Source: a virus. From it: 64,000 bases of DNA. Below, in pieces: positions 1,225 through 63,394 of the stretch. The DNA is taken from positions 10,996 to 74,995 of the IMG/VR virus record IMGVR_UViG_3300023184_000090. One strand, written 5' to 3'. The notes beneath the pieces were generated by a model. It did no database searches. It saw nothing but the letters and a program-made list of their open reading frames with translations, and was not told the DNA's origin. Every line of letters starts with the position of its first letter. The stretch's first letter is position 1. The position numbers and the translations under genes were made by a program.

Positions 1225-1237
1225 TTGCTTCTCGGGT

Positions 1238-1348: not shown

Positions 1349-1361
1349 TTGCTTCTCCCGG

Positions 1362-1622: not shown

Positions 1623-1633
1623 GAATGTTCCTT

Positions 1634-5137: not shown

Positions 5138-5303
5138 TTTGTTTCCTTCGCTTCTTAAAAAAGTATTTGACTACTTCATAGTCTACGCCGAATCGTTCGG
5201 CAATGGCCCTCATTGACATGCCCTGCTCACGCAACACCAATGCTCGGCGTGCATCAATCAGTGTGGGTTTGCGCCCACTCCCCGGTCTTGCGCCCCCTTT
5301 CAT
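5085..5303 (-). CDS. small HTH DNA-binding protein
   Basis: GGARPGSGRKP AT-hook-like start plus GMSMRAIAERFGV helix-turn-helix. Confidence 0.65.
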   Translation of the reverse strand: MKGGARPGSGRKPTLIDARRALVLREQGMSMRAIAERFGVDYEVVKYFFKKRRKQNGHDPRSQSEEGSQAAA

Positions 5304-5423
5304 GTGTTCTCCTTGAATTGATAATCTTTAAAGACGGTTCCCCTGCTTGCATCGCCTTTCCAGCATTCGTTTACCCATCCCCGCTTGCCTGACTTGTAAG
5401 TACGCCAATGTCCACGAACCTGA
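5297..5423. repeat. exact direct repeat, copy 1 (copy 2 at 63874-64000)
   Basis: 127 identical bases from ctttcatgtgttctcc to cacgaacctga; offset 58,577. Confidence 0.97.
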
Positions 5424-5965
5424 TGACGGCGTGGTGTTGCGTGGGTTCCGCCTTGATAATCATTTTTTGGTTTAGGCGATTCAATTTCCACTGTATTCCA
5501 GTCAAAACTTAAAGCGGGTTTGCCTTTTGATTGACGCTTTTGATTGATAAATGTGCGCTTTGGTGTGGGGCGATAACCCTGCGATTGATGAGCAAGTTTT
5601 ATCAACACTGCAAGCACCATTCGGTGGACAGGTTTAATATCTTCAAGGGTTATTTCTTTGTCCTTCTGATAAATTCTGAAGCCTTCTCCGGTAGAAACAT
5701 AAGCATATGGAGAAAAGTATTTGCCGCCATGCCACATGGAGCAACCGCCCACAGTTATTGAATCATCGCCCCTTAAAAGCCAAAGAGCAAAGTCTTTTCC
5801 TTGCGTATCCAAGCCAACAATTCCCGTTCTTTTTGAAGGTAAATTCATCAAAAAATCTGCGGGAACTTTTGTGTCAAGTACAGGCTCCATTTGCCCAACA
5901 TCAAACCACAAAGCAGTTTCTGGCTCAGGCGCAAACTTTACGGCCTTGCAAACCAATGGAGTCAT
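5300..5965 (-). CDS. conserved phage hypothetical protein
   Basis: 221-aa ORF with basic C-terminal GGTHATPRRHQVRGHWR motif; its 3' end recurs at the window end. Confidence 0.8.
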   Translation of the reverse strand: MTPLVCKAVKFAPEPETALWFDVGQMEPVLDTKVPADFLMNLPSKRTGIVGLDTQGKDFALWLLRGDDSITVGGCSMWHGGKYFSPYAYVSTGEGFRIYQKDKEITLEDIKPVHRMVLAVLIKLAHQSQGYRPTPKRTFINQKRQSKGKPALSFDWNTVEIESPKPKNDYQGGTHATPRRHQVRGHWRTYKSGKRGWVNECWKGDASRGTVFKDYQFKENT

Positions 5966-6090
5966 TGCGGATTCTCCTCGTCATCAAAAGACATTTCAGG
6001 TGGATGTGAAATGTCATCATGGACAATAACGCCAAACTCATTTGCCAGCAAAAATCTGCCGCACACTATGCAGTAATAACCTTCTGTCAT
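5962..6090 (-). CDS. small CxxC protein
   Basis: MTEGYYCIVCGRFL..., ATGA overlaps at both ends, RBS GGAG. Confidence 0.55.
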   Translation of the reverse strand: MTEGYYCIVCGRFLLANEFGVIVHDDISHPPEMSFDDEENPQ

Positions 6091-6551
6091 GTGTTCTTCT
6101 CCTCGGCGTAGCCGTTCTTTTGCTTGAGTTTGGCTTCAATGGCTCTAACGCATTTCAATCCAGTTGGTGTCCAAGGGTATTCACCTGCACATTCGTGCAT
6201 CTCCTCATCCGTCAGCCCTACCCATGTGCGCTGTGGTGGGTGGGTGTAGAGAGGTTCAACCCAACCTTTATGGTTTGGGTTTCTTTTATTCCAAACATCT
6301 GCGTAAGTTTCGTTGTCCTCATAAGAACAATAAAAATACAAACCCTCACCATCAAATGTGCGCCACGCCACAGGCTCTTGCTCTGCATAAGCCTCCTTGT
6401 ACAAGCCCAGCCGTTCATTTTCATTGTGCAAGGCTTGAAGTGCTTTCTCTTGTGCCAATCGTGCGTTGAGTCTCGCAACCTCACCTTCCAAACCCCTTAT
6501 GACAATCTTGAATGCATTGGCTTCGCAGTGTTTTTCACAAGTGTCAGTCAT
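6087..6551 (-). CDS. mosaic early hypothetical protein
   Basis: QEPVAW...PLYTHPPQRTWVGLTDEE...AIEAKLK..KNT, a typical phage early-gene mosaic. Confidence 0.7.
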   Translation of the reverse strand: MTDTCEKHCEANAFKIVIRGLEGEVARLNARLAQEKALQALHNENERLGLYKEAYAEQEPVAWRTFDGEGLYFYCSYEDNETYADVWNKRNPNHKGWVEPLYTHPPQRTWVGLTDEEMHECAGEYPWTPTGLKCVRAIEAKLKQKNGYAEEKNT

Positions 6552-6700
6552 GCTTGTTCTCCTCTGGTTGTTGTGGAAAAGTTGATGTAACAAATCGCAC
6601 AGCACTGTCTCCGTCTTGAATCAGCACCGTTACTGTTGCCGCTTGCAAATTTTTGCCATAAACCAACCTCAAGCTTTCCCAAAGTTTTTGCATTTCATCT

Positions 6701-6913
6701 TTAGTCATGCTTCACCACCCATACAGCAGTGCCGCCAGTAAATTCAAATTCATCAAATTTCAGCCTGATGTACTGTTGTCCCGGCACACCAGCAGATTGG
6801 ACATAGCCTTGAATTCCAAAGCTCTTTAGCTCTGTCACCACTACCATGCAAGCACCGAACGTTTCCTTGGTTGGTGTAACCTGCACAATGTCTCCAACTT
6901 TTAAGTCTTTCAT
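6701..6913 (-). CDS. small SH3/KOW-like hypothetical protein
   Basis: LKVGDIVQV start; coupled to neighbours. Confidence 0.6.
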   Translation of the reverse strand: MKDLKVGDIVQVTPTKETFGACMVVVTELKSFGIQGYVQSAGVPGQQYIRLKFDEFEFTGGTAVWVVKHD

Positions 6914-7122
6914 GCTTGTTCCATTTCTCTAATAGCGGCGGCGCATTGGTCACGCACATCAATTTCCTGTTGCATTGGTAAGCTCTCGCACAGCTTTGCA
7001 CACGCCTCACGCTCCTCGGCGGCTATAGTTCCCAACTGACCACGCAAATTGGCAACCGTAAGCAACAGGGAATCCCTTGCCATTTTCATTCGGTCAAACT
7101 CAATTTCTTCATCTTGTGTCAT
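6910..7122 (-). CDS. hypothetical protein
   Basis: EREACAKLCE...CAAAIR motif common in phage early genes. Confidence 0.65.
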   Translation of the reverse strand: MTQDEEIEFDRMKMARDSLLLTVANLRGQLGTIAAEEREACAKLCESLPMQQEIDVRDQCAAAIREMEQA

Positions 7123-7382
7123 CGCTTCATTCCTCTCACAAATGACGCAAAGCTTTGCACTGTGTCCCGACCGAACGGCATGGTGAACTTGGTCTCCAAC
7201 TCCACAGCCACTTCTTCCAAAGCAAAATTGCGCTTGCGGTTGTTCGCATTATCAATGTCGGCAAAGTCCTGCTCAATTCGTTGTATTTGCCTCTTACGGT
7301 TTAGTGAACGCACGATTTCTTGTCGTACTGATGACATGCGCTCGATGTCATTAAACGCTTCATCTTCTGGGTTATCTATCAT
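7119..7382 (-). CDS. hypothetical protein
   Basis: MIDNPEDEAF...FGRDTVQSFASFVRGMK; ATGA overlap with next gene. Confidence 0.6.
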   Translation of the reverse strand: MIDNPEDEAFNDIERMSSVRQEIVRSLNRKRQIQRIEQDFADIDNANNRKRNFALEEVAVELETKFTMPFGRDTVQSFASFVRGMKR

Positions 7383-7643
7383 TGCGATCTCTTTCATCCA
7401 TCCAAAACCACAGTTCAGCCAATGCATACAGTATCAATCCAGCTATTGCTATGCATAGACTACCAAGCAAGAAGATTGTGACCACAGTTTCAGTCATCCT
7501 TCTTCTCCTTCTTATCCTCCAACAAGTCAATCAACGTGCTCAAAGGTACATTGTTGCCGAACTTTTTTTGAATAACTGCAATCTCATGCATAATGAAATT
7601 ACAGCCTGATTCAAAGCCTTTGATGTACTCATTCATCTCAGTC

Positions 7644-7931
7644 TCAGGATACATGCTTCACCCCTAGGTACCGCTTGGCTTTTTCTGTTGGCACACACAT
7701 CCGGCTACGCTCGTCTTCACGGTTCACTTGTGTCTTAACATAGCCATGCTCTTTAAGCCAGGCCAGGTTGTTGTGAACAGTCGAGTGCGATGCAATGCCT
7801 TCGCCTACTGCAATGTGTGCAAGGTCCATGACAGTCATGATCTTCTTATCAATGATCATGTCAAGCATTACCTCGGACACCGGCGTCATGCCAGCCTGTT
7901 TTCGCTTTTTGAACCAGTAAAGTGGTCGCAT
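7644..7931 (-). CDS. MarR-like winged-helix protein
   Basis: STVHNNLAWLKEHGYV....EDERSR...TEKA wHTH pattern. Confidence 0.6.
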   Translation of the reverse strand: MRPLYWFKKRKQAGMTPVSEVMLDMIIDKKIMTVMDLAHIAVGEGIASHSTVHNNLAWLKEHGYVKTQVNREDERSRMCVPTEKAKRYLGVKHVS

Positions 7932-8158
7932 TATTTTCTTCCTTGTGCCAAAATTGTGCAGATTGCCGTTGCTGCATGACCTTCTACACCATCTAGCGCA
8001 CAAGCCACAACCATGGGATCAGCGCCATTGGACACGGCTTTCTCCCATTTATCGCGCTTGCCATGGGCATTGATGGTGAGAGACACTATCAGCGCTATGA
8101 AGAACGCCAACACCATGCCCCAAATGCAAACCCAAAATTTTTGGACACTATCCATCAT
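7931..8158 (-). CDS. small membrane protein
   Basis: N-terminal hydrophobic helix FWVCIWGMVLAFFIALIVSLTI. Confidence 0.6.
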   Translation of the reverse strand: MMDSVQKFWVCIWGMVLAFFIALIVSLTINAHGKRDKWEKAVSNGADPMVVACALDGVEGHAATAICTILAQGRK

Positions 8159-8445
8159 GCTACTCCTTCTTCATACGTAATTGCTTGCAATTTGCTGATA
8201 CGGTCCGCGATAGAGATCATTGTCTTTTGGTACTCGGCCATGAGTTTCTTCTTTTCTTTTTCCAAGGCGGCAATTTGCTTGAGGCGAGGATCGAAGCTGT
8301 CAGGGATCTCTATTTCTATCTCTTGACTGCAAACGTGAACGCGATAATCGGTATCATCCATCTTGTGTGTGTACACAACGAATTCGGGCTTTTCTTCCCA
8401 TTGATACTGTGACTGATGAATGTGAATGGTGTGTTTAGTTTTCAT
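8155..8445 (-). CDS. hypothetical protein
   Basis: RBS GGAGA; MKTKHTIH... with C-terminal coiled coil. Confidence 0.65.
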   Translation of the reverse strand: MKTKHTIHIHQSQYQWEEKPEFVVYTHKMDDTDYRVHVCSQEIEIEIPDSFDPRLKQIAALEKEKKKLMAEYQKTMISIADRISKLQAITYEEGVA

Positions 8446-8577
8446 TAGGTTCTCCAAATTAAAATGTCGAGGGCTACAACAATGATACCAACAAGGCAAA
8501 CTATGCGAGCAACCTTGTCGGCAACGGTTAAATTGGCAACATGTATTTCTACACTGATGCCGTCGTCTACTACTACC

Positions 8578-8835
8578 TTACGCACTGAAGTCTTCCAACA
8601 TGGCGCGGTGGTGCTTTTTCAACTGGACCAGGATGTCGTGCTGGTCTTTTACTGACAACTCATAAGTTACATCGGTACCTGCAGGCTCGTCTTCAAAGGC
8701 CTCGGTTGTGTAAGCAAACCAGTCATACGTTTCACCAAGGCCAACGGATGCATCTTCATCGAAGTAGTCGTACTCCACCAGCAAATAGCCATAGTCAAGT
8801 GAGCTAACTTCTGTTTTGTAGGTCATGTTCTTCAT
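8578..8835 (-). CDS. acidic hypothetical protein
   Basis: MKNMTYKTE..., D/E-rich. Confidence 0.55.
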   Translation of the reverse strand: MKNMTYKTEVSSLDYGYLLVEYDYFDEDASVGLGETYDWFAYTTEAFEDEPAGTDVTYELSVKDQHDILVQLKKHHRAMLEDFSA

Positions 8836-8846
8836 GGTGGTTCCGA

Positions 8847-9206
8847 TCAGAGTGAAGTTACGCGGCATGCAAGGGAAGCGGATGTCTTGGTGTGCTTGTC
8901 AATAATGTCTTTTTGGAGATCAATGCCAGCAGCTGCAAGTGCCTCTTTAAACTTAACCAATGCATCGAGTTCTTGGAGCACCGCCTCGTAGTTAACAAAG
9001 GGGCGTTGTGAAAGGCTGACAGAAGCTTTGTAGAACTGGCCGTTGTGCTTGCCTTCGCCTTGGTTCTTGATTTCATCCTTCAGGACTTCGACTTGGTTGT
9101 CCAAGGCTGTCTTATCTGCCAACATGAAACCGAGGCGGTCTACATTGGACAGAGTGCTAATGTTTACTTGTGTTTTCAAACCGGTTTGTGTGTTTAGTAC
9201 TTCCAT
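8847..9206 (-). CDS. hypothetical protein, first gene of the leftward early operon
   Basis: RBS AAGGA upstream of ATG 9206, immediately downstream of the promoter motif. Confidence 0.7.
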   Translation of the reverse strand: MEVLNTQTGLKTQVNISTLSNVDRLGFMLADKTALDNQVEVLKDEIKNQGEGKHNGQFYKASVSLSQRPFVNYEAVLQELDALVKFKEALAAAGIDLQKDIIDKHTKTSASLACRVTSL

Positions 9207-9233
9207 TTTCAGATCCTTTGAGTTTAGTAGTTA

Positions 9234-9283
9234 GTGTGCCTAAGCACAGTTGCACTATACCATGTTTTAGCATTAGTACAATA
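9234..9283 (-). promoter_or_regulatory. leftward promoter with extended -10 TGGTATAGT
   Basis: Minus strand reads TTGTACT-AATGCTAAAACATGG-TATAGT-GCAACTG; the core AAAACATGGTATAGTGCAACTG is identical to the promoter at 56245-56266. Confidence 0.75.
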
Positions 9284-9305
9284 AATTAAAAATATTTTAT
9301 TTTTT

Positions 9306-9340
9306 GTGTTTACTTTGTAGAAACCTAGTATAGTACACAC
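9306..9340 (+). promoter_or_regulatory. rightward promoter of the same family (divergent pair)
   Basis: GTGTTTACTTT-GTAGAAACCTAG-TATAGT preceded by an AT-rich UP-like tract. Confidence 0.65.
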
Positions 9341-9398
9341 TGTGGTAACACACAAACATCTTAAATTCTTAACTTCACCATTCACAAAGGAGCCTCAC

Positions 9399-10379
9399 AT
9401 GGCACACGATATCGACACAACCACCGGCGTCTCAGCAATTGCATACATGGGCGACACCCCTTGGCACAAACTCGGCCAGCAAATGGAAGCCAACCAATCC
9501 ATCGAACAATGGCAAAAGGCAGCAGGCATGGACTTCGTCATCAAGTCCGGCCAAGTTACTTTCAACTCCTTGGACGGCATCTCAGGCGTAGTTCCTGGCA
9601 AAAAGGCCTTGTATCGGTCCGACACGCACAAAGCCTTGGCAGTGGTTTCGAACACCTTCAAGGTGGTACAACCTAAAGAAGTCCTGGAGTTTTACCGTGA
9701 CCTCACTGAGAAGGCTGGGTTCACCTTGGAGACAGCAGGCGTGCTTCGTGAAGGCCGTAAATACTGGGCCTTGGCCAACATTGGCAAGGAGATCAAGATT
9801 GCCAATGACGAGCTCAAAGGCTACCTGCTCTTAGGCACGGCCTGTGATGGCTCTATGGCAACAACTGCCATGTTCACCTCAGTTCGTGTGGTGTGTGCCA
9901 ACACCTTGGGGTTTGCAATGCACGAGGCCGAGACAGGCAAGGCAAAGAACGTGGTCCGTGTCAACCACCGGTCAGAGTTCAATGAGGATGCTGTTAAAGC
10001 ACAGCTTGGCTTGGCTAATCTTAGCTGGGCCAAGTTCATTACTCAAGTTGATCAGTGGTGCACCACTACGGTCAGTGACTCATTGGCCAAGGATTACTTT
10101 GACTCAATGGCTTCATATAGCACCGCCGAAGGCGACGTGATTGTAAGCAAGAAGACATCAGACATGCTGATGCAACTGTTCCAAGGCGGTGGCAAAGGTA
10201 GCAACCTGGTTACGGCCAAAGGCACTGTCTGGGGATTGGTGAATGCAGTCACCGAGTATGTGGATCATCACAAAGGCCGTACGGCTGATGGCCGGATGGA
10301 TCGGGCTTGGTTTGGTGATGGCCAAAACATCAAGGCACTTGCTACTGCCAAGGCCGACGAAATCGCTTTGTTGGTATGA
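9399..10379 (+). CDS. DUF932 / TIGR03299-like phage-plasmid protein
   Basis: TPWHKLG, Y/FKVVQP, ETAGVLREG, DGSMAT, RVVCANTL, GTVWGLVNAVTEYVDH; RBS AAGGAG before ATG 9399. Confidence 0.88.
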   Translation: MAHDIDTTTGVSAIAYMGDTPWHKLGQQMEANQSIEQWQKAAGMDFVIKSGQVTFNSLDGISGVVPGKKALYRSDTHKALAVVSNTFKVVQPKEVLEFYRDLTEKAGFTLETAGVLREGRKYWALANIGKEIKIANDELKGYLLLGTACDGSMATTAMFTSVRVVCANTLGFAMHEAETGKAKNVVRVNHRSEFNEDAVKAQLGLANLSWAKFITQVDQWCTTTVSDSLAKDYFDSMASYSTAEGDVIVSKKTSDMLMQLFQGGGKGSNLVTAKGTVWGLVNAVTEYVDHHKGRTADGRMDRAWFGDGQNIKALATAKADEIALLV

Positions 10380-10387
10380 TCTAAAAG

Positions 10388-10416
10388 AAGCCCCTAGGCG
10401 GTGAACCTAGGGGCTT
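10388..10416. terminator. perfect 11-bp hairpin (terminator-like)
   Basis: AAGCCCCTAGG-cggtgaa-CCTAGGGGCTT immediately after the DUF932 gene; no strong U-tract on +. Confidence 0.55.
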
Positions 10417-10458
10417 AAACGTCATAATGACAACTGCGAAAACAAAAAGGACCAGATC

Positions 10459-12558
10459 ATGCCAATGGGATTTTCGTCTCATATAACACAACCAGATGAA
10501 TTATACAAAACTTTTTTAGCCAATCGCAAATACGATGATAACGACGAGTTTACCTTAGGTTTACAGCTCTTAGACAAGGAGCAAACCAAGCAGCTTTTAG
10601 GGCACACGTATGAATGGTCGGTTAAGATTCCGTACTTTGACGTAGACGGCAAAGATACCGGGTTTGTAAGGGTTAGGTTGTTGACCCCTAAGACTAAGAT
10701 GAAATACTCACAGGCCAGAGCCAGTGGGTCACACATTTATTTTCCGCCTGTAGCGTCATGGCGAACTATCATCAACAATGTAGATGTGCCGATCACCATC
10801 ACTGAAGGCGAGTTTAAAAGCTGGTCGATCACTAAAGCTATAGAAGCCGAGGGCCTGCTTAATTCTTGCATTGGCTTGGCAGGTGTGACAAGTTGGACAA
10901 GCAAGAACGGTGTGCACTTACATCCGGATCTTATGCAAATCATGTGGCAAAAGAAGACAAGCTTCGAGACCAAGCATCGCAAGGTGTACATAGTGTTTGA
11001 CTATGATGGTGCCAAGGAAGACGGCGAGCCAAATGAGCAGGTTGCATTTGCCGAGACAAAGCTGGCAGTGACGTTAAGAGGACTAGGTGCAGAAGTGCAC
11101 CTTTGTCGCGTTGGGCGGTTCGGCCCTGGCAAAGGTAGCAAGTTTGCCATTGATGATCACCTAGATGCAGGCGGTACACTAGGTCAAGTGTTGGCTAGCA
11201 CCTCGGTCATTATGAATGGGATTGACACACTTGATGTAAGGCTGCATGAATTCAGCACTAAGTATGCGTTATACAACGGTGATGTGATTCGTATCGATGA
11301 CGGTCACATCATGCCGTTCCAAAAAGCCAGGATTGACAGTGCCCAGCACATCTATTTGCAACAGGTAACAGTACCAGGCAGAGGCAACCAACCGCCCAAG
11401 ATCACAACACGCGAGATCATCCTGATCGATGAGTACAAGAAGTGGAAGCGTAGATGTGACATCAGGCGCGTTGGTGTGTTTCCGCACTACCAAGGGCTAA
11501 AGATCACACCGGATGGCAACTACAACTACTTGAACAGTTGGCTAAATGAGCCTGTAGACGGTGATGCGCATGCGTATCTGGAGTTTTGTGACTACTTTTT
11601 TAGAGATGAACCAGCATTTGCTGATTATTGGCATGACTGGGTCGCTAACGTGGTGCAATTTCCGCACAGGCGAAACAACACAACACCCCAGTTTGTATCG
11701 AACATTGAAGGCATTGGTAAGTCAGCCGTTGCCGAGTTCATAGCCGAAATGCTAGGCCTTGGTGAACAAGGGCCAGCCATCATCATCGGACCTGACGAGC
11801 TCTTTGGCAACTTTAACGGTATATTTAAGAACAAAATTCTCATAGTGATTAATGAACCAAGCAGTGACCGTGAAGACCACTCAGCCCAGCTAAAGAGCAT
11901 GATCACAGGCAAGGAAATAGCTATCAACAATAAGTATGGTGCTCAATACAACATTGAGAACTACATGAACTTTATATTTACATCTAATAAGCCATACATC
12001 ACTAAGATGGGCAACAATGCCAGACGCGAAGCCATCTATAAGCCAGGCAGTCTATCCAACACAGAAACGCACCCCAAAGTAGTCAACCTTATGGCATGGG
12101 CACGGCATGAACGCGGCTTTGGCAAGGTGCTCAACTGGTACTACAACCGAGACATCAGCAACTTTGATCCATCCAAGCCAGCACCTGACACCAAGTACAA
12201 GCAGGTTGCTATATCAGCAGGCCGTAGCCCGATCGAAGCATTTGCCAAAGAACTAAGTGACTGGGTGGTTGATAAGCTTGACGGCTATGCAGCCTTTACG
12301 CCGGCACAGCTGGAGATACTGTGTGAGAAGTGGGGCCATGACAGCCGCGCCAAGTCGCAATACATCAAGAAAGCCTTGCTTAACTATGCCGATCTAGAGT
12401 CAAAACCGGTCAATTTCCAAGGCAAAACGATCAGGCTCACGATTTGCAAAATTACAAATCCGCCAACCAAAAACAGAGATCTGATGAAGCATGGTGCCTT
12501 GAGCAAGATGGCAATTGACACAGACGTTGCTGTACGACAAGAAATAGAGCAAATGTGA
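10459..12558 (+). CDS. primase-helicase (DUF3854/TOPRIM primase plus SF3/D5-like helicase)
   Basis: ITEGEFK and YIVFDYD TOPRIM motifs; EGIGKS Walker A, IVINE Walker B, FTSN motif C. Confidence 0.88.
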   Translation: MPMGFSSHITQPDELYKTFLANRKYDDNDEFTLGLQLLDKEQTKQLLGHTYEWSVKIPYFDVDGKDTGFVRVRLLTPKTKMKYSQARASGSHIYFPPVASWRTIINNVDVPITITEGEFKSWSITKAIEAEGLLNSCIGLAGVTSWTSKNGVHLHPDLMQIMWQKKTSFETKHRKVYIVFDYDGAKEDGEPNEQVAFAETKLAVTLRGLGAEVHLCRVGRFGPGKGSKFAIDDHLDAGGTLGQVLASTSVIMNGIDTLDVRLHEFSTKYALYNGDVIRIDDGHIMPFQKARIDSAQHIYLQQVTVPGRGNQPPKITTREIILIDEYKKWKRRCDIRRVGVFPHYQGLKITPDGNYNYLNSWLNEPVDGDAHAYLEFCDYFFRDEPAFADYWHDWVANVVQFPHRRNNTTPQFVSNIEGIGKSAVAEFIAEMLGLGEQGPAIIIGPDELFGNFNGIFKNKILIVINEPSSDREDHSAQLKSMITGKEIAINNKYGAQYNIENYMNFIFTSNKPYITKMGNNARREAIYKPGSLSNTETHPKVVNLMAWARHERGFGKVLNWYYNRDISNFDPSKPAPDTKYKQVAISAGRSPIEAFAKELSDWVVDKLDGYAAFTPAQLEILCEKWGHDSRAKSQYIKKALLNYADLESKPVNFQGKTIRLTICKITNPPTKNRDLMKHGALSKMAIDTDVAVRQEIEQM

Positions 12559-53095: not shown

Positions 53096-53781
53096 AGCTC
53101 TTTTCCTTTCGTGTTGAGCCACATGCGCAATGTTGACATACCGCCATCTATGAGCACATGGTTGTGAAATTTCTGGTACTTATGGTACAAGGGGTGGTTG
53201 ATGAAATTCTTCATAAGCAAGTATGCATCAGCATCAGGCGCCTCCATGCCCATAGCTCTATCGGTGTCAATGCATTTAACATTGAAGTCTTGCCCAAACT
53301 CTTTGGTGATGAGATGACCTTGGTCATTTAGCAAACCAATGATGACAACCCGTGGCTTATGAACGCCAGTGCTTTCATACGTAGGGTTGTGTTTTTCGAC
53401 TCTAAACTCATGTTCTAGCTCTTTGACAGCAGCCCTAACTTGTGTCTTCACCATACCTGCGATTCTTGCAACTATGGCTTCTACTAGGCCGTCCAAACTA
53501 ACTTCTGTAGGCGCCGATGGAGGCTCTATCATAGGAGTTTGCACAGTTGGTGCCACAGTTGGTGCCACAGGCTCTATGTAGTACTTAATTGTCTTCTTTA
53601 GCTTGTCGGTTAAGTTCGCGCATGATGAGTGCGAATTAAATTGCCGACGACGATTTTCAGGGATGACCGTTTGTGCCTGCTTTAACGCATCATATGCGCC
53701 AAGCCCATGTCTATGCATTATCTCAATTGCACGACCGAGCACGCAATCTTCTTCAGCTTTTGTCCAAAATATCTTTTTCAT
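53092..53781 (-). CDS. hypothetical protein with DUF2325-like C-terminal alpha/beta domain
   Basis: RVVIIG...ADAYLLMKNFINH...GGMSTL. Confidence 0.55.
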   Translation of the reverse strand: MKKIFWTKAEEDCVLGRAIEIMHRHGLGAYDALKQAQTVIPENRRRQFNSHSSCANLTDKLKKTIKYYIEPVAPTVAPTVQTPMIEPPSAPTEVSLDGLVEAIVARIAGMVKTQVRAAVKELEHEFRVEKHNPTYESTGVHKPRVVIIGLLNDQGHLITKEFGQDFNVKCIDTDRAMGMEAPDADAYLLMKNFINHPLYHKYQKFHNHVLIDGGMSTLRMWLNTKGKEL

Positions 53782-54040
53782 GTTTAGCCTTTTTGCAGTA
53801 GTTGTGTTTAGTGACATAGTAACGATAGTGCCGTACGCTTCTATTGAGCGCTTGCTTTCTAAGATCGAATTCTCCACATACGTCAACTTGTCGTTCAAGG
53901 TGAACAACAACTCGACCTAATGCCTTGATTGTGCGACTTTTCCAGTTAGGGTTGTCCTTCACAAATCGGCTAAAGATTAGTTTCCGCCTCTTTAGCGTCA
54001 TTTTCGACAGAGAACTTTGAATGTCGAACCAAGTGTTCAT
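53753..54040 (-). CDS. basic hypothetical protein
   Basis: ATGA-coupled to the ThyX-like gene. Confidence 0.55.
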   Translation of the reverse strand: MNTWFDIQSSLSKMTLKRRKLIFSRFVKDNPNWKSRTIKALGRVVVHLERQVDVCGEFDLRKQALNRSVRHYRYYVTKHNYCKKAKHEKDILDKS

Positions 54041-54960
54041 CGATGTGATTTCTCGATAGCATCAATCTGGTTCAACAAATTTTCACGAATCTTTAGATAG
54101 ACATCGCTACCTGCGTATTCATCCCTACCTTGCGTGTGGTAGAACTGTTCTTCACACCAGTCGAAGTTGTCGTTCTTTGCATTAGGCGGAAAGATGTTTG
54201 TTTTGCCTTTGGCTGATTGACGTTGGTAGAACACATCCGGTTTACGGAAGTCCACCAACCCCTTAAGAAACGGATACTTCTTAAGAACCTCCAGCCATAG
54301 CTTCATGGCAATGATGTTGTCTACAGTCGTTTGAATCTGTTCATCACCGCGCATAATGCAGTAGCCAATAAGATCTTTGATAGTGCAGCGAACCATATAA
54401 AAATGCTCAAAATTTCTAGGCATAATTGTACGAGTATCCAAGCCATGTACAAGCCCACTATCAAGCATATCCACATAAAGATCCCTAGCCATAGTAGTGA
54501 TTTGCTTATAGCGGTCATAGAAGTCCTTGTTAGCCATGATGCTTGGTTTGACCATCACACGGTCATCTCGCATATCCCGGTCACCATGCACCTGGGCTGC
54601 AAAACTAAACAACCGATGCCTAATTAGGTGAGTTGTATCAACCATGTCCATGCCATTCACGGACCAAGTGATGTTGATGGTTTCCATGGCGGTTGGCAAT
54701 AGTTCGTACTTAAACAGCTCATCAACAGTTTGATCAATGTCAGCCTCTGGGAATTCCCACTGAATCTTGTCATTCCAGGTGTTCATTAAGAACACGGAGA
54801 TCGTCTTCCTGAATTCCGGAATAGTAGGTGCATGGATGATCTGCACGTCGATGTTTTCCAGCTGGTTGACAAACTCTATTGGCCCAGGCTGTTTGCCGAA
54901 CTTAAGAGTTGTATGCATCTTTTGGAGATGCGGCATTTGTGATTTAGTGACTTTAGGCAT
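54037..54960 (-). CDS. thyX: divergent ThyX-fold (flavin-dependent thymidylate synthase-like) enzyme
   Basis: HLIRHRLFSF, Y..ML.SG....DTRTIMP, L..Y...RGD..IQ align with ThyX; the RHRx7S serine is absent. Confidence 0.8.
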   Translation of the reverse strand: MPKVTKSQMPHLQKMHTTLKFGKQPGPIEFVNQLENIDVQIIHAPTIPEFRKTISVFLMNTWNDKIQWEFPEADIDQTVDELFKYELLPTAMETINITWSVNGMDMVDTTHLIRHRLFSFAAQVHGDRDMRDDRVMVKPSIMANKDFYDRYKQITTMARDLYVDMLDSGLVHGLDTRTIMPRNFEHFYMVRCTIKDLIGYCIMRGDEQIQTTVDNIIAMKLWLEVLKKYPFLKGLVDFRKPDVFYQRQSAKGKTNIFPPNAKNDNFDWCEEQFYHTQGRDEYAGSDVYLKIRENLLNQIDAIEKSHR

Positions 54961-55234
54961 TTTTTGTTTCCTTGTTGAGTTGAATTTCTACTAGACGTGC
55001 GTAACCTGCAATGTCGGTCCAGCTATCCACATGTGTGGGTGATACAGCCAACCGAGAAAGTTTCATGGCGATTTTGGAGAGATAAATAACATGGACAGGA
55101 TCCATCTCAGCATTGTGCTGTTTGCGATACCTGTTAGTTATATTTTCAAGGATAACCGCTTCTAATGAAACACCCTCAAAAAAATCCCCGTAAACCTCAC
55201 CTCTCTGCTCTAAGACTTGATCTGTCGTTTTCAT
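54953..55234 (-). CDS. DUF6378-like small helical protein (possible NTP pyrophosphatase)
   Basis: LEQRGEVYGDF...KLSRL....HVDSWTDIAGYARL. Confidence 0.7.
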   Translation of the reverse strand: MKTTDQVLEQRGEVYGDFFEGVSLEAVILENITNRYRKQHNAEMDPVHVIYLSKIAMKLSRLAVSPTHVDSWTDIAGYARLVEIQLNKETKNA

Positions 55235-55743
55235 GGCACCACCTTATAAGGCTCAAGTTTTTCCTCAAGTTTAGATAGCCGTTTCAAGCTATTCTCGTGG
55301 ACATCCACCATGTAACCGCCGTTACCTAGGCCGATCTCATTGGCAGAATACTGAAGGCATTGCAAAGCATCGGCATAGTGAACAGCCAGTGCTTCCGGTG
55401 TGTCCTCGTGGTACAGGTCACAAAATTCTCTAAGTGCATCTGGAAACCCTTGTACGATTTCTTGTTCAGCCAGTTTAAGGGCTTTTGCAACTATAGGAAA
55501 GTTCTTCTTGACCAGGTGGTTTACATCAGAGATTTCCATTTCAGCCAGATCATGACAAATGGCAATCTTGACTGCCTTGTCAACATCAAACTTGTAGTCT
55601 GCTGATAGCATCATGACGCCTAGTGCCACGAAGAAACTGTGTGTTGCCACACTTTCCTGATGTATAACAGGCTTCATGCTATACCGTTTGGTGTGCTCAA
55701 GCGTGTAGCTTTGCATGAAGAAAGCAAAATCACCTTTATTCAT
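55231..55743 (-). CDS. HD-domain phosphohydrolase (YfbR/DatZ-like deoxynucleotidase)
   Basis: KRY...ESVATHS, CHDLAE...SD, YADALQ. Confidence 0.88.
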   Translation of the reverse strand: MNKGDFAFFMQSYTLEHTKRYSMKPVIHQESVATHSFFVALGVMMLSADYKFDVDKAVKIAICHDLAEMEISDVNHLVKKNFPIVAKALKLAEQEIVQGFPDALREFCDLYHEDTPEALAVHYADALQCLQYSANEIGLGNGGYMVDVHENSLKRLSKLEEKLEPYKVVP

Positions 55744-56197
55744 AGCTAATGCTTTCCTCTGACCAGTTTTTACGAACAAACGTGCCAGTGCTTACAATGT
55801 GTTCTATGGCAGTATCCAGTTGTTTAAAGTCTCTGACCACTGAGCCTGATGCGGCCAGTACGAGGTTAAACTTTTGACCAGGTTCACCACCTAGCCATAC
55901 ATAGATAATAGGTATGCCTTTTGCATAGCACCAGCCGGCTTCAAACATTGTGCCAGGGTCTTTGCCGTCAGTAACGCAAATGGTTAAGTCGGTTTTGCGC
56001 AGTGCCACCAGGTTGATGTCTAAGACTTCTTCTGGCGTGGTTTTGCCAGGTGTGTACATACATTCATCTTTTGGACTGAAGTACTTTAGTACGCTAAGGC
56101 CCAAGTTGGTTTTGATTTGTTCAATGATGCGCACCTGTTCAGGATTGAAGAAGGGGCCTGCTATGTAGATGTATGGGTATCGTGAGATTGGTTGCAT
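55736..56197 (-). CDS. nucleoside 2-deoxyribosyltransferase / dNMP N-glycosidase family protein
   Basis: YIAGPFF, FSPK, DGKDPGTMFEAG (catalytic Glu), FNLVL. Confidence 0.88.
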   Translation of the reverse strand: MQPISRYPYIYIAGPFFNPEQVRIIEQIKTNLGLSVLKYFSPKDECMYTPGKTTPEEVLDINLVALRKTDLTICVTDGKDPGTMFEAGWCYAKGIPIIYVWLGGEPGQKFNLVLAASGSVVRDFKQLDTAIEHIVSTGTFVRKNWSEESISYE

Positions 56198-56229
56198 TTT
56201 GATCCTTACAGTTGTTAAGAAGTTTTGTT

Positions 56230-56283
56230 TGTTTACTTAGTAAACAGTTGCACTATACCATGTTTTCAGTAAAGTAAACACTT
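56230..56283 (-). promoter_or_regulatory. promoter of the nucleotide-metabolism operon with downstream palindrome
   Basis: Minus strand reads GTGTTTACTTT-ACTGAAAACATGG-TATAGT-GCAAC-TGTTTACT-A-AGTAAACA. Confidence 0.8.
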
Positions 56284-58572: not shown

Positions 58573-60392
58573 TACTTGACCTCTGCAAAGTTATTGCCAA
58601 CCTTGGCTTCTGCAATGAGTGGGACATCCAACGTAAATGCATGGATCATGCAATGTGCCAGCTTTTCAGCCTCACGTTGGACAACATCAGCCTCGGCTGA
58701 GATGATCAATTCATCATGCAAGGATAGCAACAAACGACTACCAAGTGCAACCTTATGATAATCAATCATTGCCTGCTTTGCCATATCAGCACCGCTACCT
58801 TGAATGAGAGTGTTTAATGACTTAAATGCAAAGTTCATAAGCCTGCCATTGATGATCTTGGGCGGTTCACCCTTAACCAGCCTACCGCCAATGGTGGAGA
58901 ACGGTGCCCTAAGCTTATACCTGTCCATCAAATCACGATTGACTTTGTCAAGGCCAGGTGCTACCTCAGACTTGTACAGGTCAATCAACAACTTGGCTTC
59001 ATCATAGGGAATACCTAGCATCTCACTGATCTTTTTGGGCCCTGCACCGTACAAGATGCCAAAAGACATTGTCTTGGCATAGTCACGAATAACAACACGA
59101 CCAGCCTTTTCACTCATCAAGTTGGCAGCAAACGTGTGTAGATCGGCATTGGGGTCTTTACGATACTGTTCGGCAAGCTTACCATCCTCAAAGTGTGCAA
59201 ACAATCTAAGCTCTTGGGCTTGGAAGTCAGCAGCTGCCATTAAATGGCCTTCATCAGGCAGTATGAATTGGCGGATCTTAGGTATCACCAGGCCTTGAAG
59301 GACTAGAGGTAGCGGTGTCTTTGGCCCACGAGTTGGCATTGTCTGCAATGTGGGTTTTGCCGACAACCGACCGGTACGGGTACCGCCAACCTCACCGCGG
59401 ACCGTATTCCATTCCGTGTAGATCCTTCCCGTTGATGACGATTGCATTAGCCATGGTTCTATATAGGTACCGGTCAGTTTGACCAACACGTCCCTATGCC
59501 GTAGGACTGAGGACAATTCGTCGTCGGTTAGCATGTCCTTCAGTGTGTCTTTGTCGGACAGTGGTGTGTTCTTGTCACTGGTAGGCCACTTCTTGTCTTT
59601 GTTGTAGACACCTTTAGCCATGATAACATTCACCAGCTGTATGCCTGAGTTAAAGTTGATGTCATCCGTACCAAAGTACTTGAACAGCCATTCTTCACAC
59701 ATGGCGATGTCAGCTTTAGCCTTGTCAAGGCAGCCTTGTAAACCTGCAGTGTCAACACGAACACCTAGCTTACTGTTCTCCAACAACACAGGCATCAATG
59801 ACATTTCCCTAAAGTAGGCTTCAGGCATATCAGCCCTAACCATTTCAGTGAAGTCAAACAAAGCCGCTGTAAGTCGTACGTCAGCATTGGCATACTTACC
59901 TACTAGATCGGCAGGACCACGAGCAATGTAGGCGCCTGCAGTCTTAGGCTTCTTCTTAACAGCCTCAATGTGTTCTACCAGCCACATGAACAGTTCATCA
60001 CGTTCCTCAGGCTGAATGTTTAACCATTCCTTACAAAGCTCTTTTAGACTCAAGCTACGAACATACGGGTCGTGCAGGAAAGCAAGAACCATGGTGTCAT
60101 GCATCCTTGACGGATGTATAAAAGGCAGGTCAAACTTTTCGTAGATGATAGCCATGTCGAACATTGCATTGTGAAAGCAGATGTGCCGATTAGATGCCCA
60201 AATGTCTTTAAGCAATTCACGGACCGTATTGAAATCCGTGTTGTTGTTAGAGTCATGCGAGAATGAGTAGTAACCGGACTTGAACTGCCCAGTCCTGTCG
60301 AGCACCGCCAAGCCAACCGGCTTAGGTGGGTACTGTTCAGGACGTGGGCCGATCGCTTCCGACTCAAAGTCTAGGAAGATAGGGTCTTGCAT
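58572..60392 (-). CDS. polA: family A DNA polymerase (Phe at the 762-equivalent position)
   Basis: ExoI DFES, HNAMFD, YANAD, TGRLS, motif A DFQAQELR, motif B AKTMSFGILYG, IQGS, motif C HDE. Confidence 0.95.
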   Translation of the reverse strand: MQDPIFLDFESEAIGPRPEQYPPKPVGLAVLDRTGQFKSGYYSFSHDSNNNTDFNTVRELLKDIWASNRHICFHNAMFDMAIIYEKFDLPFIHPSRMHDTMVLAFLHDPYVRSLSLKELCKEWLNIQPEERDELFMWLVEHIEAVKKKPKTAGAYIARGPADLVGKYANADVRLTAALFDFTEMVRADMPEAYFREMSLMPVLLENSKLGVRVDTAGLQGCLDKAKADIAMCEEWLFKYFGTDDINFNSGIQLVNVIMAKGVYNKDKKWPTSDKNTPLSDKDTLKDMLTDDELSSVLRHRDVLVKLTGTYIEPWLMQSSSTGRIYTEWNTVRGEVGGTRTGRLSAKPTLQTMPTRGPKTPLPLVLQGLVIPKIRQFILPDEGHLMAAADFQAQELRLFAHFEDGKLAEQYRKDPNADLHTFAANLMSEKAGRVVIRDYAKTMSFGILYGAGPKKISEMLGIPYDEAKLLIDLYKSEVAPGLDKVNRDLMDRYKLRAPFSTIGGRLVKGEPPKIINGRLMNFAFKSLNTLIQGSGADMAKQAMIDYHKVALGSRLLLSLHDELIISAEADVVQREAEKLAHCMIHAFTLDVPLIAEAKVGNNFAEVK

Positions 60393-61141
60393 TAATACTT
60401 GCTCGACTTAGCTGCAGGTGCTTCAGGTGCCGCATCTTCTTCAACGCCGGCAGTTTCGATAGCAAGAGCAAGCTCTTTTTCGCTACGTGCAACTAAAGCC
60501 TTGATCACTTCCATGTTGTCAATGGTACGTACAAAGTCAAAGTTCACCTTGAACTGAGTCTTGGCATCAGGCACCAGGCTAATCCGTGTGATCACGGCAG
60601 ACAAAGGGCGGCGGGTAGTACTTGCAATCTTTTGCAGGTAGGTAGCAAACCCACGAACACTGGTCACAGGGGTGCGTAAAGCGGCCACTTCAGCTGCATT
60701 GACGGACTCAACCGACTCAACCGAATCAGCAGTCATGATCAAAAGCCGACGCTTTTCAGCACATGCTTTGCCTTTGCCGCCATTGGTGGAACTACCCCAT
60801 TGATCTTTAGGGCAACCTTGGCAAGTGTCGCACTGTTTTTCAGGTGCACTGCCGTTAGGCTTAAGATCCGACATGGTAGGGCCAAGAGCATAGCACACAG
60901 GACCGGCAGGGTTTGTGGGATCATACCGGCTTGTGTAATACAGGCGTTCCACAGGCGAACTGAGAATCACCACTTCCAACTGATTGTTGGCAATGGGGTT
61001 ATCCCGGTAGCTTAAGATGGCGCCTTTGGTGCTAAGGAACTGAGTACCGACGGTACTACGTTCAGCAACCATGCCGGCATTTGCCAGTTTTTCCAGTTCG
61101 GATTCGAACAGTGCCAGTTGTTGACCAGGTTTAGTAGACAT
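60392..61141 (-). CDS. putative ssDNA-binding protein
   Basis: YY...YDP....PVC, C..CP...WGS...GKGKAC...RRL Zn motif, acidic tail; upstream of polA. Confidence 0.65.
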   Translation of the reverse strand: MSTKPGQQLALFESELEKLANAGMVAERSTVGTQFLSTKGAILSYRDNPIANNQLEVVILSSPVERLYYTSRYDPTNPAGPVCYALGPTMSDLKPNGSAPEKQCDTCQGCPKDQWGSSTNGGKGKACAEKRRLLIMTADSVESVESVNAAEVAALRTPVTSVRGFATYLQKIASTTRRPLSAVITRISLVPDAKTQFKVNFDFVRTIDNMEVIKALVARSEKELALAIETAGVEEDAAPEAPAAKSSKY

Positions 61142-61151
61142 TTAAAAACTC

Positions 61152-61526
61152 CTATTTGCGTGATTTAGTTAACGAGATTTCCCACACATCAGCAGTTGTA
61201 GACCCGGGAATAATCTCACCGGCTTCCCAACGATCCTTGAAAGCGGTGCTGCTGAGTCTTTTATGCAGCAAGTCAAAGCTTTTTGTAGCCGTGACATACG
61301 CATAAAATTGATCCCAATCCGTGATGGTTGGGTGTGTCTTTTTGGCCATAGTAACTGAATGGCCACGTTCAGATGCGGCCTTCATGGTGCCTGCTTCATT
61401 CATAGCATGCATGATGTCAGCTTCCAATGTTGCTGCCTTCTTAGACAGCTCTGAATCCTGTTCAGACAGTTCCTTACGCTGAGTCTTGATCATTGCAAGC
61501 TCATCAATTAGATCATTTAGCTTCAT
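61152..61526 (-). CDS. conserved replication-module coiled-coil protein
   Basis: DWDQFYAYV.....DLL.KR.S......IPG. Confidence 0.7.
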   Translation of the reverse strand: MKLNDLIDELAMIKTQRKELSEQDSELSKKAATLEADIMHAMNEAGTMKAASERGHSVTMAKKTHPTITDWDQFYAYVTATKSFDLLHKRLSSTAFKDRWEAGEIIPGSTTADVWEISLTKSRK

Positions 61527-61986
61527 AAGGCACCTCTAACAGTTCAGGGTCGTACACATGCACATTTAGAATTGCTTCGCTAAACATGGCCTTGGCTACC
61601 TTGAATGACTGATCCCACCTAGGGTTGCTATTCATGATAGTCACATGAGCCGTGATGCCTGATTGGATGATCATAGATGCGCATTGGCTACATGCATGCA
61701 TAGGCCAAGTGTAGATTGTGCAATCTTTCAAAGACTGCTTTGCAAACAAAATGGCATTGGCTTCGGCATGCAAGGTCATCATCAACTTAGTGTTGCGATC
61801 AAATAGCCGCTCCTGGTGATCTTGTATGCCACGAGGAAAACCATTGAAGCCAGTACTTACGATTTGATTGTCTGGGCTAACAATCACAGCACCGCACTTT
61901 GTGGATGGATCCTTAGACCAGGTTGACACAAGCTTAGCCAGTTGCAAATAGCGTATGTGCCACTTGTTAGGCGTAAGCATGATCAT
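61513..61986 (-). CDS. dCMP deaminase
   Basis: WSKDPSTKCGAVI, GFNGFP, HAEANA, CSQC..IIQSGI. Confidence 0.92.
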   Translation of the reverse strand: MIMLTPNKWHIRYLQLAKLVSTWSKDPSTKCGAVIVSPDNQIVSTGFNGFPRGIQDHQERLFDRNTKLMMTLHAEANAILFAKQSLKDCTIYTWPMHACSQCASMIIQSGITAHVTIMNSNPRWDQSFKVAKAMFSEAILNVHVYDPELLEVPYEAK

Positions 61987-62710: not shown

Positions 62711-62764
62711 TGTTTACTGAGTAAACAATTGCATTATACAATGCTTTCTAAAAAGTAAACACTT
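62711..62764 (-). promoter_or_regulatory. promoter of the replication operon with downstream palindrome
   Basis: Minus strand reads GTGTTTACTTT-TTAGAAAGCATTG-TATAAT-GCAAT-TGTTTACT-C-AGTAAACA. Confidence 0.8.
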
Positions 62765-63161
62765 ATTTGCGATTATTTTCAAATAATTTTAGCGCAATTA
62801 GCTCTTCAGGGCCTGTCCATCCTTCAGGCTTTTTGGCGTCTTGTTGTGTGCCGCGGCTTGTAGCGCCTGGGACTTTTTGCATGTTGCAATTGTGGACTAT
62901 GTCCAGGATCTCAGGTAATGGCAGACCCATGTGATGAGCACATCCCATTGTGACATAAGCAAGATCTGCAATTGCATCGGCAGCATCTACAAGATCGCCT
63001 TTTTCATGAGCCTTAAGAAGCTCGGACAGTTCTTCCATGAGGAACCGTGCATAGAAGCTGATGTCAGCAGGTTGCAATAGCTGAGGTGTTGTTGAGACTG
63101 GCAAGTTAAGCTTTTGCCGAAACTGTAGGACTTTGTTAAAGATGTCTTGGTTCATGGTCAT
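62763..63161 (-). CDS. MazG-like (PRA-PH family) nucleotide pyrophosphohydrolase
   Basis: MEELSEL...DAADAIADLAYV..G...VH.CNM.K...KPEGW..P. Confidence 0.85.
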   Translation of the reverse strand: MTMNQDIFNKVLQFRQKLNLPVSTTPQLLQPADISFYARFLMEELSELLKAHEKGDLVDAADAIADLAYVTMGCAHHMGLPLPEILDIVHNCNMQKVPGATSRGTQQDAKKPEGWTGPEELIALKLFENNRK

Positions 63162-63394
63162 TTCCATAAGTGTTGCAGTGATTTAGAGTCGTAGGCTTTT
63201 TGAAATTCTTTTGGTTCAGGTTTGTTGGTTCTCTCCTTGTATGGTTTTTGCGGAATGGTGCCTGTGAACTGTACTTCAAGGGACTTAAAATTGTAGTAAC
63301 ACAGGTTGCATGTCCTGCGTCGATACACTTTGTCTTCCCATTTAGTTGTTTCTATCACCGACGTTTTTGTGCCTTCACACTTGGGGCACTTCAT
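63158..63394 (-). CDS. NrdR-like Zn-ribbon protein
   Basis: MKCPKC....SVIET.....RRRTC..C...F.SLE resembles the NrdR N-terminal DNA-binding ribbon; no ATP cone. Confidence 0.7.
   Translation of the reverse strand: MKCPKCEGTKTSVIETTKWEDKVYRRRTCNLCYYNFKSLEVQFTGTIPQKPYKERTNKPEPKEFQKAYDSKSLQHLWK

Follow-up and report, generated by a model that had tools for sequence, protein, structure and literature searches.

Comparison With Described Systems

The pyrimidine replacement set of phage T4 consists of the gp56 dCTPase, the gp42 dCMP hydroxymethylase, the gp1 kinase and glucosyltransferases, and SPO1/PBS2-type phages encode a dUMP hydroxymethylase, a dTMP nucleotidase and a dTTPase. To our knowledge, all characterised pre-replicative pyrimidine modifications of phages start from an enzyme with the ThyA fold. 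A thymidylate-synthase-like CMP hydroxymethylase is accompanied by an N-glycosidase of the nucleoside 2-deoxyribosyltransferase (NDT) family in the MilA/MilB and BcmA/BcmB pairs, and PolB is a ThyX paralogue that methylates UMP/dUMP at C5. These systems were compared with a gene cassette of an uncultured freshwater phage, the IMG/VR virus record IMGVR_UViG_3300023184_000090 (74,995 bp), of which positions 10996-74995 (64,000 nucleotides, hereafter the window) were analysed. Four successive open reading frames (ORFs) on the minus strand at 54037-56197 encode, in this order, an NDT-family protein, an HD phosphohydrolase, a DUF6378 protein and a ThyX-like protein. Our analysis leans, by a small degree, toward the operon being a pre-replicative pyrimidine-modification module, the form that a portable nucleotide-pool module of viruses takes in this lineage. 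The invariant core of the module is a remodelled ThyX-fold flavoenzyme together with an NDT-family enzyme, to which a YfbR-type HD protein is often added.

The T4 and SPO1/PBS2 sets resemble the cassette in that a thymidylate-synthase-family enzyme, dNTP/dNMP hydrolases and a dCMP deaminase lie beside replication genes, and other lineages of the module add a kinase and sugar enzymes. However, their synthases have the ThyA fold and no deoxyribosyltransferase accompanies them, whereas the module here has a ThyX-fold enzyme with an NDT as its constant partner. The MilA/MilB and BcmA/BcmB pairs likewise join a thymidylate-synthase-type enzyme that modifies pyrimidine C5 to an enzyme of the NDT superfamily, and BlsM is among the PDB matches of the NDT. 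They differ in the ThyA fold, in acting on ribonucleotides and in belonging to antibiotic pathways; moreover, their glycosidases act on NMPs, whereas the NDT here keeps a nucleoside-type Asp. PolB (polyoxin biosynthesis; PDB 4p5a/4p5b) is also a ThyX-fold enzyme re-purposed through loop changes, and it was recovered both by the ThyX-like sequence profile (7.5e-9) and by the fold search. Nevertheless, it belongs to bacterial secondary metabolism, has no NDT partner and is no nearer to the clade than ordinary ThyX. ThyX itself, the flavin-dependent thymidylate synthase (FDTS; T. maritima TM0449 and M. tuberculosis ThyX), shares the fold, the RHR motif and the AR..LP and FI..R arginines with the ThyX-like protein, which differs in its low identity (14-16%), a replaced loop, approximately 150 extra residues, the presence of a canonical ThyX in many of the same genomes and the NDT partner.

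A second, divergent thymidylate-synthase-like gene is also found in several phages whose DNA is proven to be T-hypermodified, namely SP-15 (gp130), YerA41 (gp081) and Carin-5. SP-15 gp130, a second Thy1 protein, was hypothesised to be a 5-hmdUMP synthase (Kropinski et al., PMC5977210), and Carin-5 and YerA41 have proven T-hypermodified DNA together with thymidylate synthase homologues (PMC12686479, PMC13697223). The profile of the ThyX-like family matched only gp9 in SP-15, and weakly (1.7e-4), and hhalign of the family against YerA41 gp081 gave a probability of 5%; no NDT or HD gene is annotated next to gp081. Family kinship with the synthase homologues of the proven T-hypermodified phages was rejected, given that the profile recovered nothing in YerA41, RP13 and SP-15 beyond the weak gp9 match and hhalign did not connect the family to YerA41 gp081. 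Because the profile misses the homologue genes of the YerA41/SP-15 type, the ThyX-like clade is distinct from them and uncharacterised. The flavin-binding ThyA homologues of RB69 and DLP3 are 5-hydroxy-dCMP synthases (Lee et al., 2026; PMC13326640). These synthases are a precedent for new C5 chemistry in viral thymidylate synthase homologues, where they start a glycosylated base, but their fold is that of ThyA and no kinship to the ThyX-like protein is expected.

The earlier note on this DNA had likened the cassette to the datZ-mazZ-purZ(-dpoZ) cluster of phages such as S-2L and PhiVC8, in which a clearing HD enzyme and a repurposed biosynthetic paralogue also lie beside a PolA gene. This likeness shrank to a loose analogy. 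The central enzyme there is PurZ, a purine enzyme, and the cluster has no counterpart of the NDT; the HD protein here belongs to the YfbR/HDDC2 type, no MazG likeness of DUF6378 was detectable and the synthase is a pyrimidine-type enzyme. A purine (Z-type) or other non-pyrimidine substitution that truly parallels this cluster is hardly credible. Its sole point of support is the match of the HD protein to phrog_7076, named dATP triphosphohydrolase, at 3e-13. Opposed to it are the pyrimidine-C5 methylase fold of the central enzyme, PDB matches of the HD profile that are YfbR/HDDC2/OxsA-type chains with none named DatZ, and the absence of an adenylosuccinate-synthetase-family gene (PF00709 matched nothing in the 75-kb record at E<=0.1). 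The T4/SPO1 pyrimidine-replacement sets appear to be nearer analogies than the Z cluster, and the pairing of the MilA/MilB type also seems close.

Fold, Family and Active Site of the ThyX-Like Protein

The AlphaFold2 model of the ThyX-like protein, built with 41 homologues, had a predicted local distance difference test (pLDDT) score of 95.5. The top Foldseek matches of this model were all ThyX proteins, including the paralogue PolB, with a probability of 1.00. The best PDB matches were M. tuberculosis (Mtb) ThyX, T. maritima ThyX and PolB, with 14-16% identity over approximately 220 of the 307 residues; the Foldseek comparison with ThyX gave an E value of 6e-11 and template modelling scores of 0.65-0.74 on the target. 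The PF02511 domain scored 41.9 bits against a gathering cut-off of 24.8, which places the protein in the Thy1 superfamily. By contrast, the TIGR02170 thyX equivalog scored 26.8 bits (E 3.2e-6) against a cut-off of 87.9, and the ThyX signature RHRxxSxxxxSxRY is broken, with RHR and the first Ser kept. By the equivalog cut-off and the signature, the protein is ThyX-fold but does not classify as a ThyX orthologue.

The family was explored via an exhaustive HMMER search over 1.84 billion cluster representatives, in which 163 clusters matched at E<=1e-3 and 78 at E<=1e-10. Judged by these matches, the ThyX-like protein belongs to a small, separate viral clade. Among the 150 listed matches, the canonical RHRxxSxxxxSxRY occurred only at about E 1e-5 or weaker (P0237 onward), whereas all stronger listed matches had THL(I/L)RHRxxSFSA(Q/E)C(T/S)GD(R/K) or variants of it. 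Another non-canonical Thy1 subgroup, with the motif RHRxxSFSQESFRxxDxR (P0201, P0229, P0232, P0246, P0252 and P0259), falls outside both canonical ThyX and the present clade. Two fusions were also observed. P0148 (551 aa) has an N-terminal GT2-like domain ahead of the ThyX-like part (PF00535 1.6e-4, below cut-off), and P0122 (515 aa) carries a basic C-terminal extension of about 200 aa with a Cys/His-rich stretch. Related-locus searches with the single distant family proteins P0148 and P0138 gave no match.

The active site was examined in three alignments, namely phmmer to Mtb ThyX, the family profile to PDB ThyX chains and hhalign to canonical phage ThyX. RHR, the AR..LP Arg (R177) and the FI..R Arg (R204) were kept in all three. 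The E-S-x-R-Y loop (Mtb S105, R107 and Y108) was replaced by Q/A-C/V-x-G-D followed by R/K, so that V/C, G and D stand at the positions of S105, R107 and Y108. The loop reads AAQVHGDRD in the window and SFSAQCTGDRD in the family consensus. In addition, the His of the canonical GH.(T/S)PFE motif aligned to Leu (another residue in some members), and the protein has about 70 extra N-terminal and 80 extra C-terminal residues. The non-canonical active-site residues proposed in the earlier note were thus borne out. These data support the ThyX-fold enzyme as a candidate for neofunctionalisation rather than an ordinary thymidylate synthase.

Linkage With NDT and HD Genes Across Viral Loci

The genomic surroundings of the ThyX-like gene were evaluated in 80 viral loci (contigs of 9-284 kb), which were 279 IMG/VR matches re-ranked by similarity to a distant family member; partners within 10 kb were detected by phmmer with the window proteins. 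In 74 of the 80 loci, an NDT homologue lay no more than 10 kb from the ThyX-like gene, usually directly up- or downstream and often with overlapping stop and start codons. HD was found in 15/80 loci, always in the order NDT-HD-ThyX-like as in the window. DUF6378 and the three small downstream ORFs were absent from all other ThyX-like-bearing lineages examined; hence, DUF6378 lies outside the portable module. Of the co-occurrence raised in the earlier note, the NDT part held, the HD part held in some of the loci and the DUF6378 part did not extend beyond the window's own lineage. The NDT, HD and ThyX-like proteins of the window all scored best against the HD-bearing loci, a pattern that is consistent with the inheritance or transfer of NDT-HD-ThyX-like as a block.

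The module occurred in at least three replication backgrounds, namely the podovirus-like one of the window with PolA and SNF2, and those of phages with PolIII-alpha, some of about 80 kb and others exceeding 200 kb. Its lineages include one with RecA, DnaB, ribonucleotide reductase and PolIII-alpha, and phages of about 80 kb that resemble Geobacillus phage GR1. Nearby genes in other lineages encode dNMP-kinase-like proteins, thymidine kinase, dCMP deaminase and NDP-sugar epimerase. In a marine lineage with Fpg/Nei glycosylases, the ThyX-like gene is immediately preceded by two MazG-like pyrophosphatase genes in tandem. The DNA glycosylases of the Fpg/Nei family are encoded there by one or two genes, which are separated from the downstream ThyX-like gene by a few others (L183:7644-8441 and 50 other loci); these genes are unusual for phages and may be tied to a modified base. 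A 302-aa protein of the PolIII-alpha lineages (L185:16773-17681 and 31 other loci, cluster 9) has an N-terminal P-loop half that is dNMP-kinase-like, with weak Tmk matches, and a C-terminal half that by eye resembles a shortened ThyA core (C..H, RSSD and F/PYD motifs). A stand-alone relative of 150 aa directly follows the ThyX-like gene in contigs similar to that of Geobacillus phage GR1 (L132:1888-2340). No paper on a ThyX-plus-NDT module was found in the literature.

Coexistence With Canonical Thymidylate Synthases

In 11/80 loci, a canonical ThyX (KHR...S.N.ES.RY) was encoded at a distance of at most 10 kb from the ThyX-like gene. Among 49 whole records, 19 had two Thy1 genes and one further record had a ThyA, which gives 20/49; these include 5 of the 6 records that were at least 70% complete. 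In the two-Thy1 records, one gene scored 115-174 bits with a length of 210-260 aa, and the other 60-86 bits with 320-360 aa. In three loci with a canonical ThyX within 10 kb (L136, L143 and L177), NDT adjoined the ThyX-like gene and not the canonical ThyX. A redundant dTMP synthase is unlikely because these 20 carrier records also encode canonical ThyX or ThyA. No other observation argues as strongly as this coexistence for a function of the clade other than dTMP synthesis. The interpretation in the earlier note was thus supported in part, by the linkage of the ThyX-like protein to NDT, and partly to HD, across unrelated phage backbones and by its frequent occurrence alongside a canonical synthase.

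The same data bear on a more ordinary explanation, in which the operon is a highly divergent dTMP supply and deoxynucleoside salvage operon and the DNA has no non-canonical base. HD and NDT would then turn dNMPs from host DNA into deoxynucleosides and swap their bases, thereby rebalancing the pool to the phage composition. The Thy1 match above the Pfam cut-off, the conserved RHR with two substrate arginines, the dCMP deaminase and MazG genes and the typical Asp of nucleoside-acting transferases in the NDT all agree with such an operon, as do the thymidine kinase beside the module in 12 marine loci and the label of the GR1 gene as a FAD (flavin adenine dinucleotide)-dependent thymidylate synthase. 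Moreover, the window's genome contains no other thymidylate synthase. However, the canonical ThyX or ThyA in at least 20/49 carrier records, the clade-wide replacement of the E-S-x-R-Y loop and the thyX equivalog score far under its cut-off are difficult to reconcile with dTMP supply, and so are the position of NDT next to the ThyX-like gene in three loci with both and the glycosyltransferase or epimerase neighbours in other lineages. On balance, this explanation is considered doubtful, although it is the most serious of the alternatives.

Geobacillus Phage GR1

GR1 was the only cultured phage with a full-length family member among 50,697 records searched by tblastn with three family members; Bacillus phage vB_BceS_LY1 gave a partial match, in an annotated thymidylate synthase. 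The GR1 gene matched the family profile at E 5e-128 and was labelled by its depositors as an FAD-dependent thymidylate synthase. Within 5 kb, GR1 encodes NDT (38% identity), HD (35%), a glycosyltransferase, a nitroreductase and the ThyX-like protein, adjoining the PolIII-alpha gene. GR1-like phages carry the gene for the nitroreductase-family flavoprotein immediately ahead of the ThyX-like gene (L132:99-710; GR1 L001:9256-9855), and it is possible that this protein is a dedicated flavin reductase for the ThyX-like enzyme. A literature search found no paper on GR1. The question of base modification is directly testable, since GR1 is a cultured carrier.

NDT, HD and DUF6378 Proteins

The NDT contains the motifs YxAGPxF, FSPKD, D80-x-G-x-x-x-E86 and FN. 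It scored 47.4 bits with PF05014 against a cut-off of 28.8, and its PDB matches included the NDTs 6evs and 7m5h and BlsM (5vto) at E 0.0026. The catalytic Glu, predicted in the earlier note to be intact, is E86, and an Asp (D80) stands six residues before it. Y11, D80, E86 and N111 were invariant across 33 NDT-family sequences, as in nucleoside 2-deoxyribosyltransferases. The dNMP N-glycosidases of the Rcl/DNPH1 type have Ser, not Asp, six residues ahead of the catalytic Glu, where it binds phosphate; this Ser is replaced in the NDT by the invariant Asp80. According to structure-function work on NDT and Rcl, the Asp of D-x-G-x-x-x-E is the pattern of enzymes that act on nucleosides rather than on dNMPs.

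These features raise another explanation, in which the pathway runs at the level of nucleosides or free bases. HD would make deoxynucleosides, NDT would load or remove the base, and the ThyX-like enzyme would modify the nucleoside or base; the product would be re-phosphorylated, or a modified free base would be released for another use, as in MilA/MilB and BcmA/BcmB. The canonical ThyX loop lost here is, according to published ThyX structures, the holder of the dUMP phosphate, and because of this loss the enzyme would act on a nucleoside or base. The change from the canonical S-G-R-Y loop to an acidic G-D-R-D stretch, the Asp in place of the Rcl/DNPH1 Ser, the BlsM match and the co-location of HD, and of thymidine kinase in some loci, all fit such a pathway. 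However, the RHR Arg and the AR..LP Arg, two other phosphate ligands, are both conserved, and we know of no ThyX-fold enzyme that acts on nucleosides. Hence, a pathway of this kind is regarded as improbable.

In the HD protein, H47, H76-D77, E80 and D137 were invariant in a 13-sequence family alignment; we take these residues, from the YfbR literature, to be the metal ligands and the catalytic residue. The protein scored 53.7 bits with PF12917 (YfbR-like; cut-off 25.9) and 34.6 bits with the YfbR equivalog NF003009, far under its cut-off of 122. The family profile matched 15 PDB entries at E<=0.01, with PH0347, HDDC2, YfbR and OxsA as the nearest; 2cqz and 1xx7 were among the PDB matches. Of the YfbR/DatZ-like character assigned to it in the earlier note, the YfbR part was retained, whereas no chain named DatZ appeared among the 15 matches, and the match to phrog_7076 was the one pointer to DatZ. 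DUF6378 was predicted to be a four-helix protein (AlphaFold2 pLDDT 85). It gave a probability of 0.4% in hhalign against the MazG-like cluster, no match in a PDB sequence search, nothing at E<=0.001 in Foldseek and only generic helical matches (Z<=8) in VIA-align, and its sequence lacks the EExxE motif. DUF6378 as an analogue of MazZ/MazG was dropped but not disproved, as the four comparisons were uninformative, and no paper on the function of DUF6378 was found in the literature.

Proposed Function of the Module

The preference for a pre-replicative pyrimidine modification is based on what was observed, namely the genes present, the fold, the replaced loop, the linkage and the co-occurrence with canonical synthases. 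From these we infer the substrate and product, the way in which the NDT and HD reactions run and the possible presence of a non-canonical base in the DNA of the window's phage. The ThyX-like enzyme probably makes an altered DNA pyrimidine. It would still bind FAD and a pyrimidine nucleotide and move a one-carbon unit to C5, with a product other than dTMP or a substrate other than dUMP; 5-hydroxymethyl- or other 5-substituted dUMP and 5-modified dCMP are examples of candidate products. HD, which would convert dNMP to deoxynucleoside, may drain the competing canonical pyrimidine. NDT may also drain the competing pyrimidine by exchange or release of bases at the nucleoside level and recycle the deoxyribose. 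Monophosphate substrate could come from the dCMP deaminase and the MazG-type pyrophosphatase, whose genes lie 5-8 kb upstream. A host kinase would phosphorylate the altered nucleotide, because the window's lineage has no phage kinase, and the phage PolA would insert it before packaging. The glycosyltransferase of GR1, the NDP-sugar epimerases and the weak GT2::ThyX-like fusion, all outside the window's phage, are a hint that the product carries a hydroxyl group open to glycosylation. Since canonical ThyX is often present as well, T might be replaced in part, as in SP-15, or the replaced base might be C, as in T4.

Several points weigh against such a modification. Three arginines that bind dUMP and FAD are conserved in the ThyX-like protein, and R128, two residues past the lost Arg, might restore canonical binding. 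YfbR-type nucleotidases belong to the normal dUMP/dTMP route in E. coli, and redundant ThyA/ThyX pairs occur in cells such as C. glutamicum, according to PDB titles. The 74/80 linkage overstates the number of independent events, because many of the loci come from few related lineages. The family profile finds no gene in T-hypermodified YerA41 or RP13, with SP-15 gp9 as its one weak match. A genome search of the window's phage found no other thymidylate synthase, Tmk or glycosyltransferase; the coexistence argument is weaker for this phage because it has no second synthase. The ThyX-like protein here could simply be the phage dTMP synthase, fed by the dCMP deaminase.

Layout and Control Region of the Cassette

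The positions of the genes and motif copies are summarized in Table 1. All four overlapping genes announced in the earlier note were found. Neighbouring cassette genes share 4-44 nt, or 4-8 nt if HD begins at a possible alternative start, the internal ATG at 55743. The fifth small ORF had no family match and is restricted to the window's lineage; it is probably co-transcribed with the cassette. The cassette was whole, in the order SNF2-NDT-HD-DUF6378-ThyX-like, in 91/91 close relatives with sufficient flank for checking. The median identity among these relatives was 89% for the ThyX-like protein, which was the best-conserved cassette member (n=91), followed by 75% for SNF2, 72% for HD, 66% for DUF6378 and 61% for NDT. 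The cassette is a real, conserved and well-delimited module.

Table 1. Positions of the cassette genes, related nucleotide-pool genes and additional promoter-motif copies in the window.
Feature	Position	Strand	Remarks
NDT-family protein	55736-56197	-	153 aa; PF05014 2.6e-12; phrog_7995
HD phosphohydrolase, YfbR/HDDC2 type	55231-55779	-	182 aa; PF13023 3e-17, PF12917 YfbR-like 2.7e-14
DUF6378 protein	54953-55234	-	93 aa; PF19905 2.5e-8
ThyX-like (Thy1-domain) protein	54037-54960	-	307 aa; PF02511 1.2e-10, residues 73-215 only
Fifth small ORF	53753-54040	-	95 aa; 4-nt overlap with the ThyX-like stop
dCMP deaminase	61513-61986	-	157 aa; PF00383 5.6e-19; same early region
MazG/PRA-PH-family nucleoside triphosphate pyrophosphohydrolase	62763-63167	-	134 aa; PF01503 2.5e-15
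Second motif copy	62732-62759	-	ahead of another early gene
Third motif copy	9309-9335	+	ahead of plus-strand structural genes

The block upstream of the cassette encodes SNF2, VRR-NUC, a PD-(D/E)XK nuclease and a 606-aa PolA. These four genes matched the replication block described in the earlier note; its single-stranded DNA-binding protein (SSB) was not confirmed, as the 249-aa ORF at 60392-61141 had no Pfam match. The dCMP deaminase would supply dUMP, and the MazG-family gene is the only MazG-type gene detectable in the genome. The presence of the deaminase and a true MazG-family pyrophosphatase nearby fits dTMP supply and base replacement equally.

The 92-bp gap that separates the stop of SNF2 (56290) from the start of NDT (56197) contains a promoter-like motif with an extended -10 element, TTTACTTTACTGAAAACATGGTATAGTG, at 56251-56278 on the minus strand. 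The pattern TTTACTTT-N3-GAAA-N4-5-GTATA(G/A)T had three matches in the window against 0.07 expected, in agreement with the earlier claim that the cassette has its own copy of a phage promoter motif. A scan with the sigma-70 consensus found fewer sites than in shuffled sequences, and the basis of the promoter claim is instead the repeated motif. The -10 element of the cassette promoter is closely followed by a perfect inverted repeat, GTTTAC-TAA-GTAAAC (56230-56250, minus strand), which could be an operator.

Parts of the window were found as contigs in 23 freshwater or lake DNA sequencing runs, and there were no RNA runs among the listed holders of the window sequence. A blastn search of the cassette region against the 50,697 phage records gave no match. 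The 75-kb record also contains a second, unrelated replication module (window 1 to about 6000 and genome bases 1-10995; locus L211) with a 655-aa PolA (2608-4575), a PD-(D/E)XK nuclease (1634-2299), a 519-aa SNF2, a DUF927 primase and an open ORF of 1843 aa. This second module is missing from the complete relatives, which have terminal repeats and lengths of 56-58 kb, and the nearest relative passes from the equivalent of window position 64000 or so directly to about 6100. Since the relatives lack it, the first 17 kb or so of the record appears to be a piece of another phage that was attached during assembly.

Implications for Viral DNA Modification

The module is probably a new, unproven ThyX-based variant of pre-replicative pyrimidine modification. 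The chances are about even that the virus-confined ThyX-fold clade is the synthase of a non-thymine, C5-modified pyrimidine deoxynucleotide, with a dedicated NDT and with HD and NTP-pyrophosphatase helpers. If the protein is only a divergent dTMP synthase, it would still illustrate how strongly a ThyX active site can diverge. If the modification is real, abundant freshwater and marine phages and GR1 would substitute some or all of a canonical pyrimidine in their DNA through a flavin-dependent route new to science. Modified DNA bases would then have a second point of entry, based on flavin and with an obligatory deoxyribosyltransferase partner, and it would be widespread, as the viral contigs from lakes and oceans number in the hundreds and include phages of more than 200 kb. 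Furthermore, it would bear on the evasion of restriction and CRISPR, on sequencing bias in viromes and on enzyme tools for modified nucleotides.

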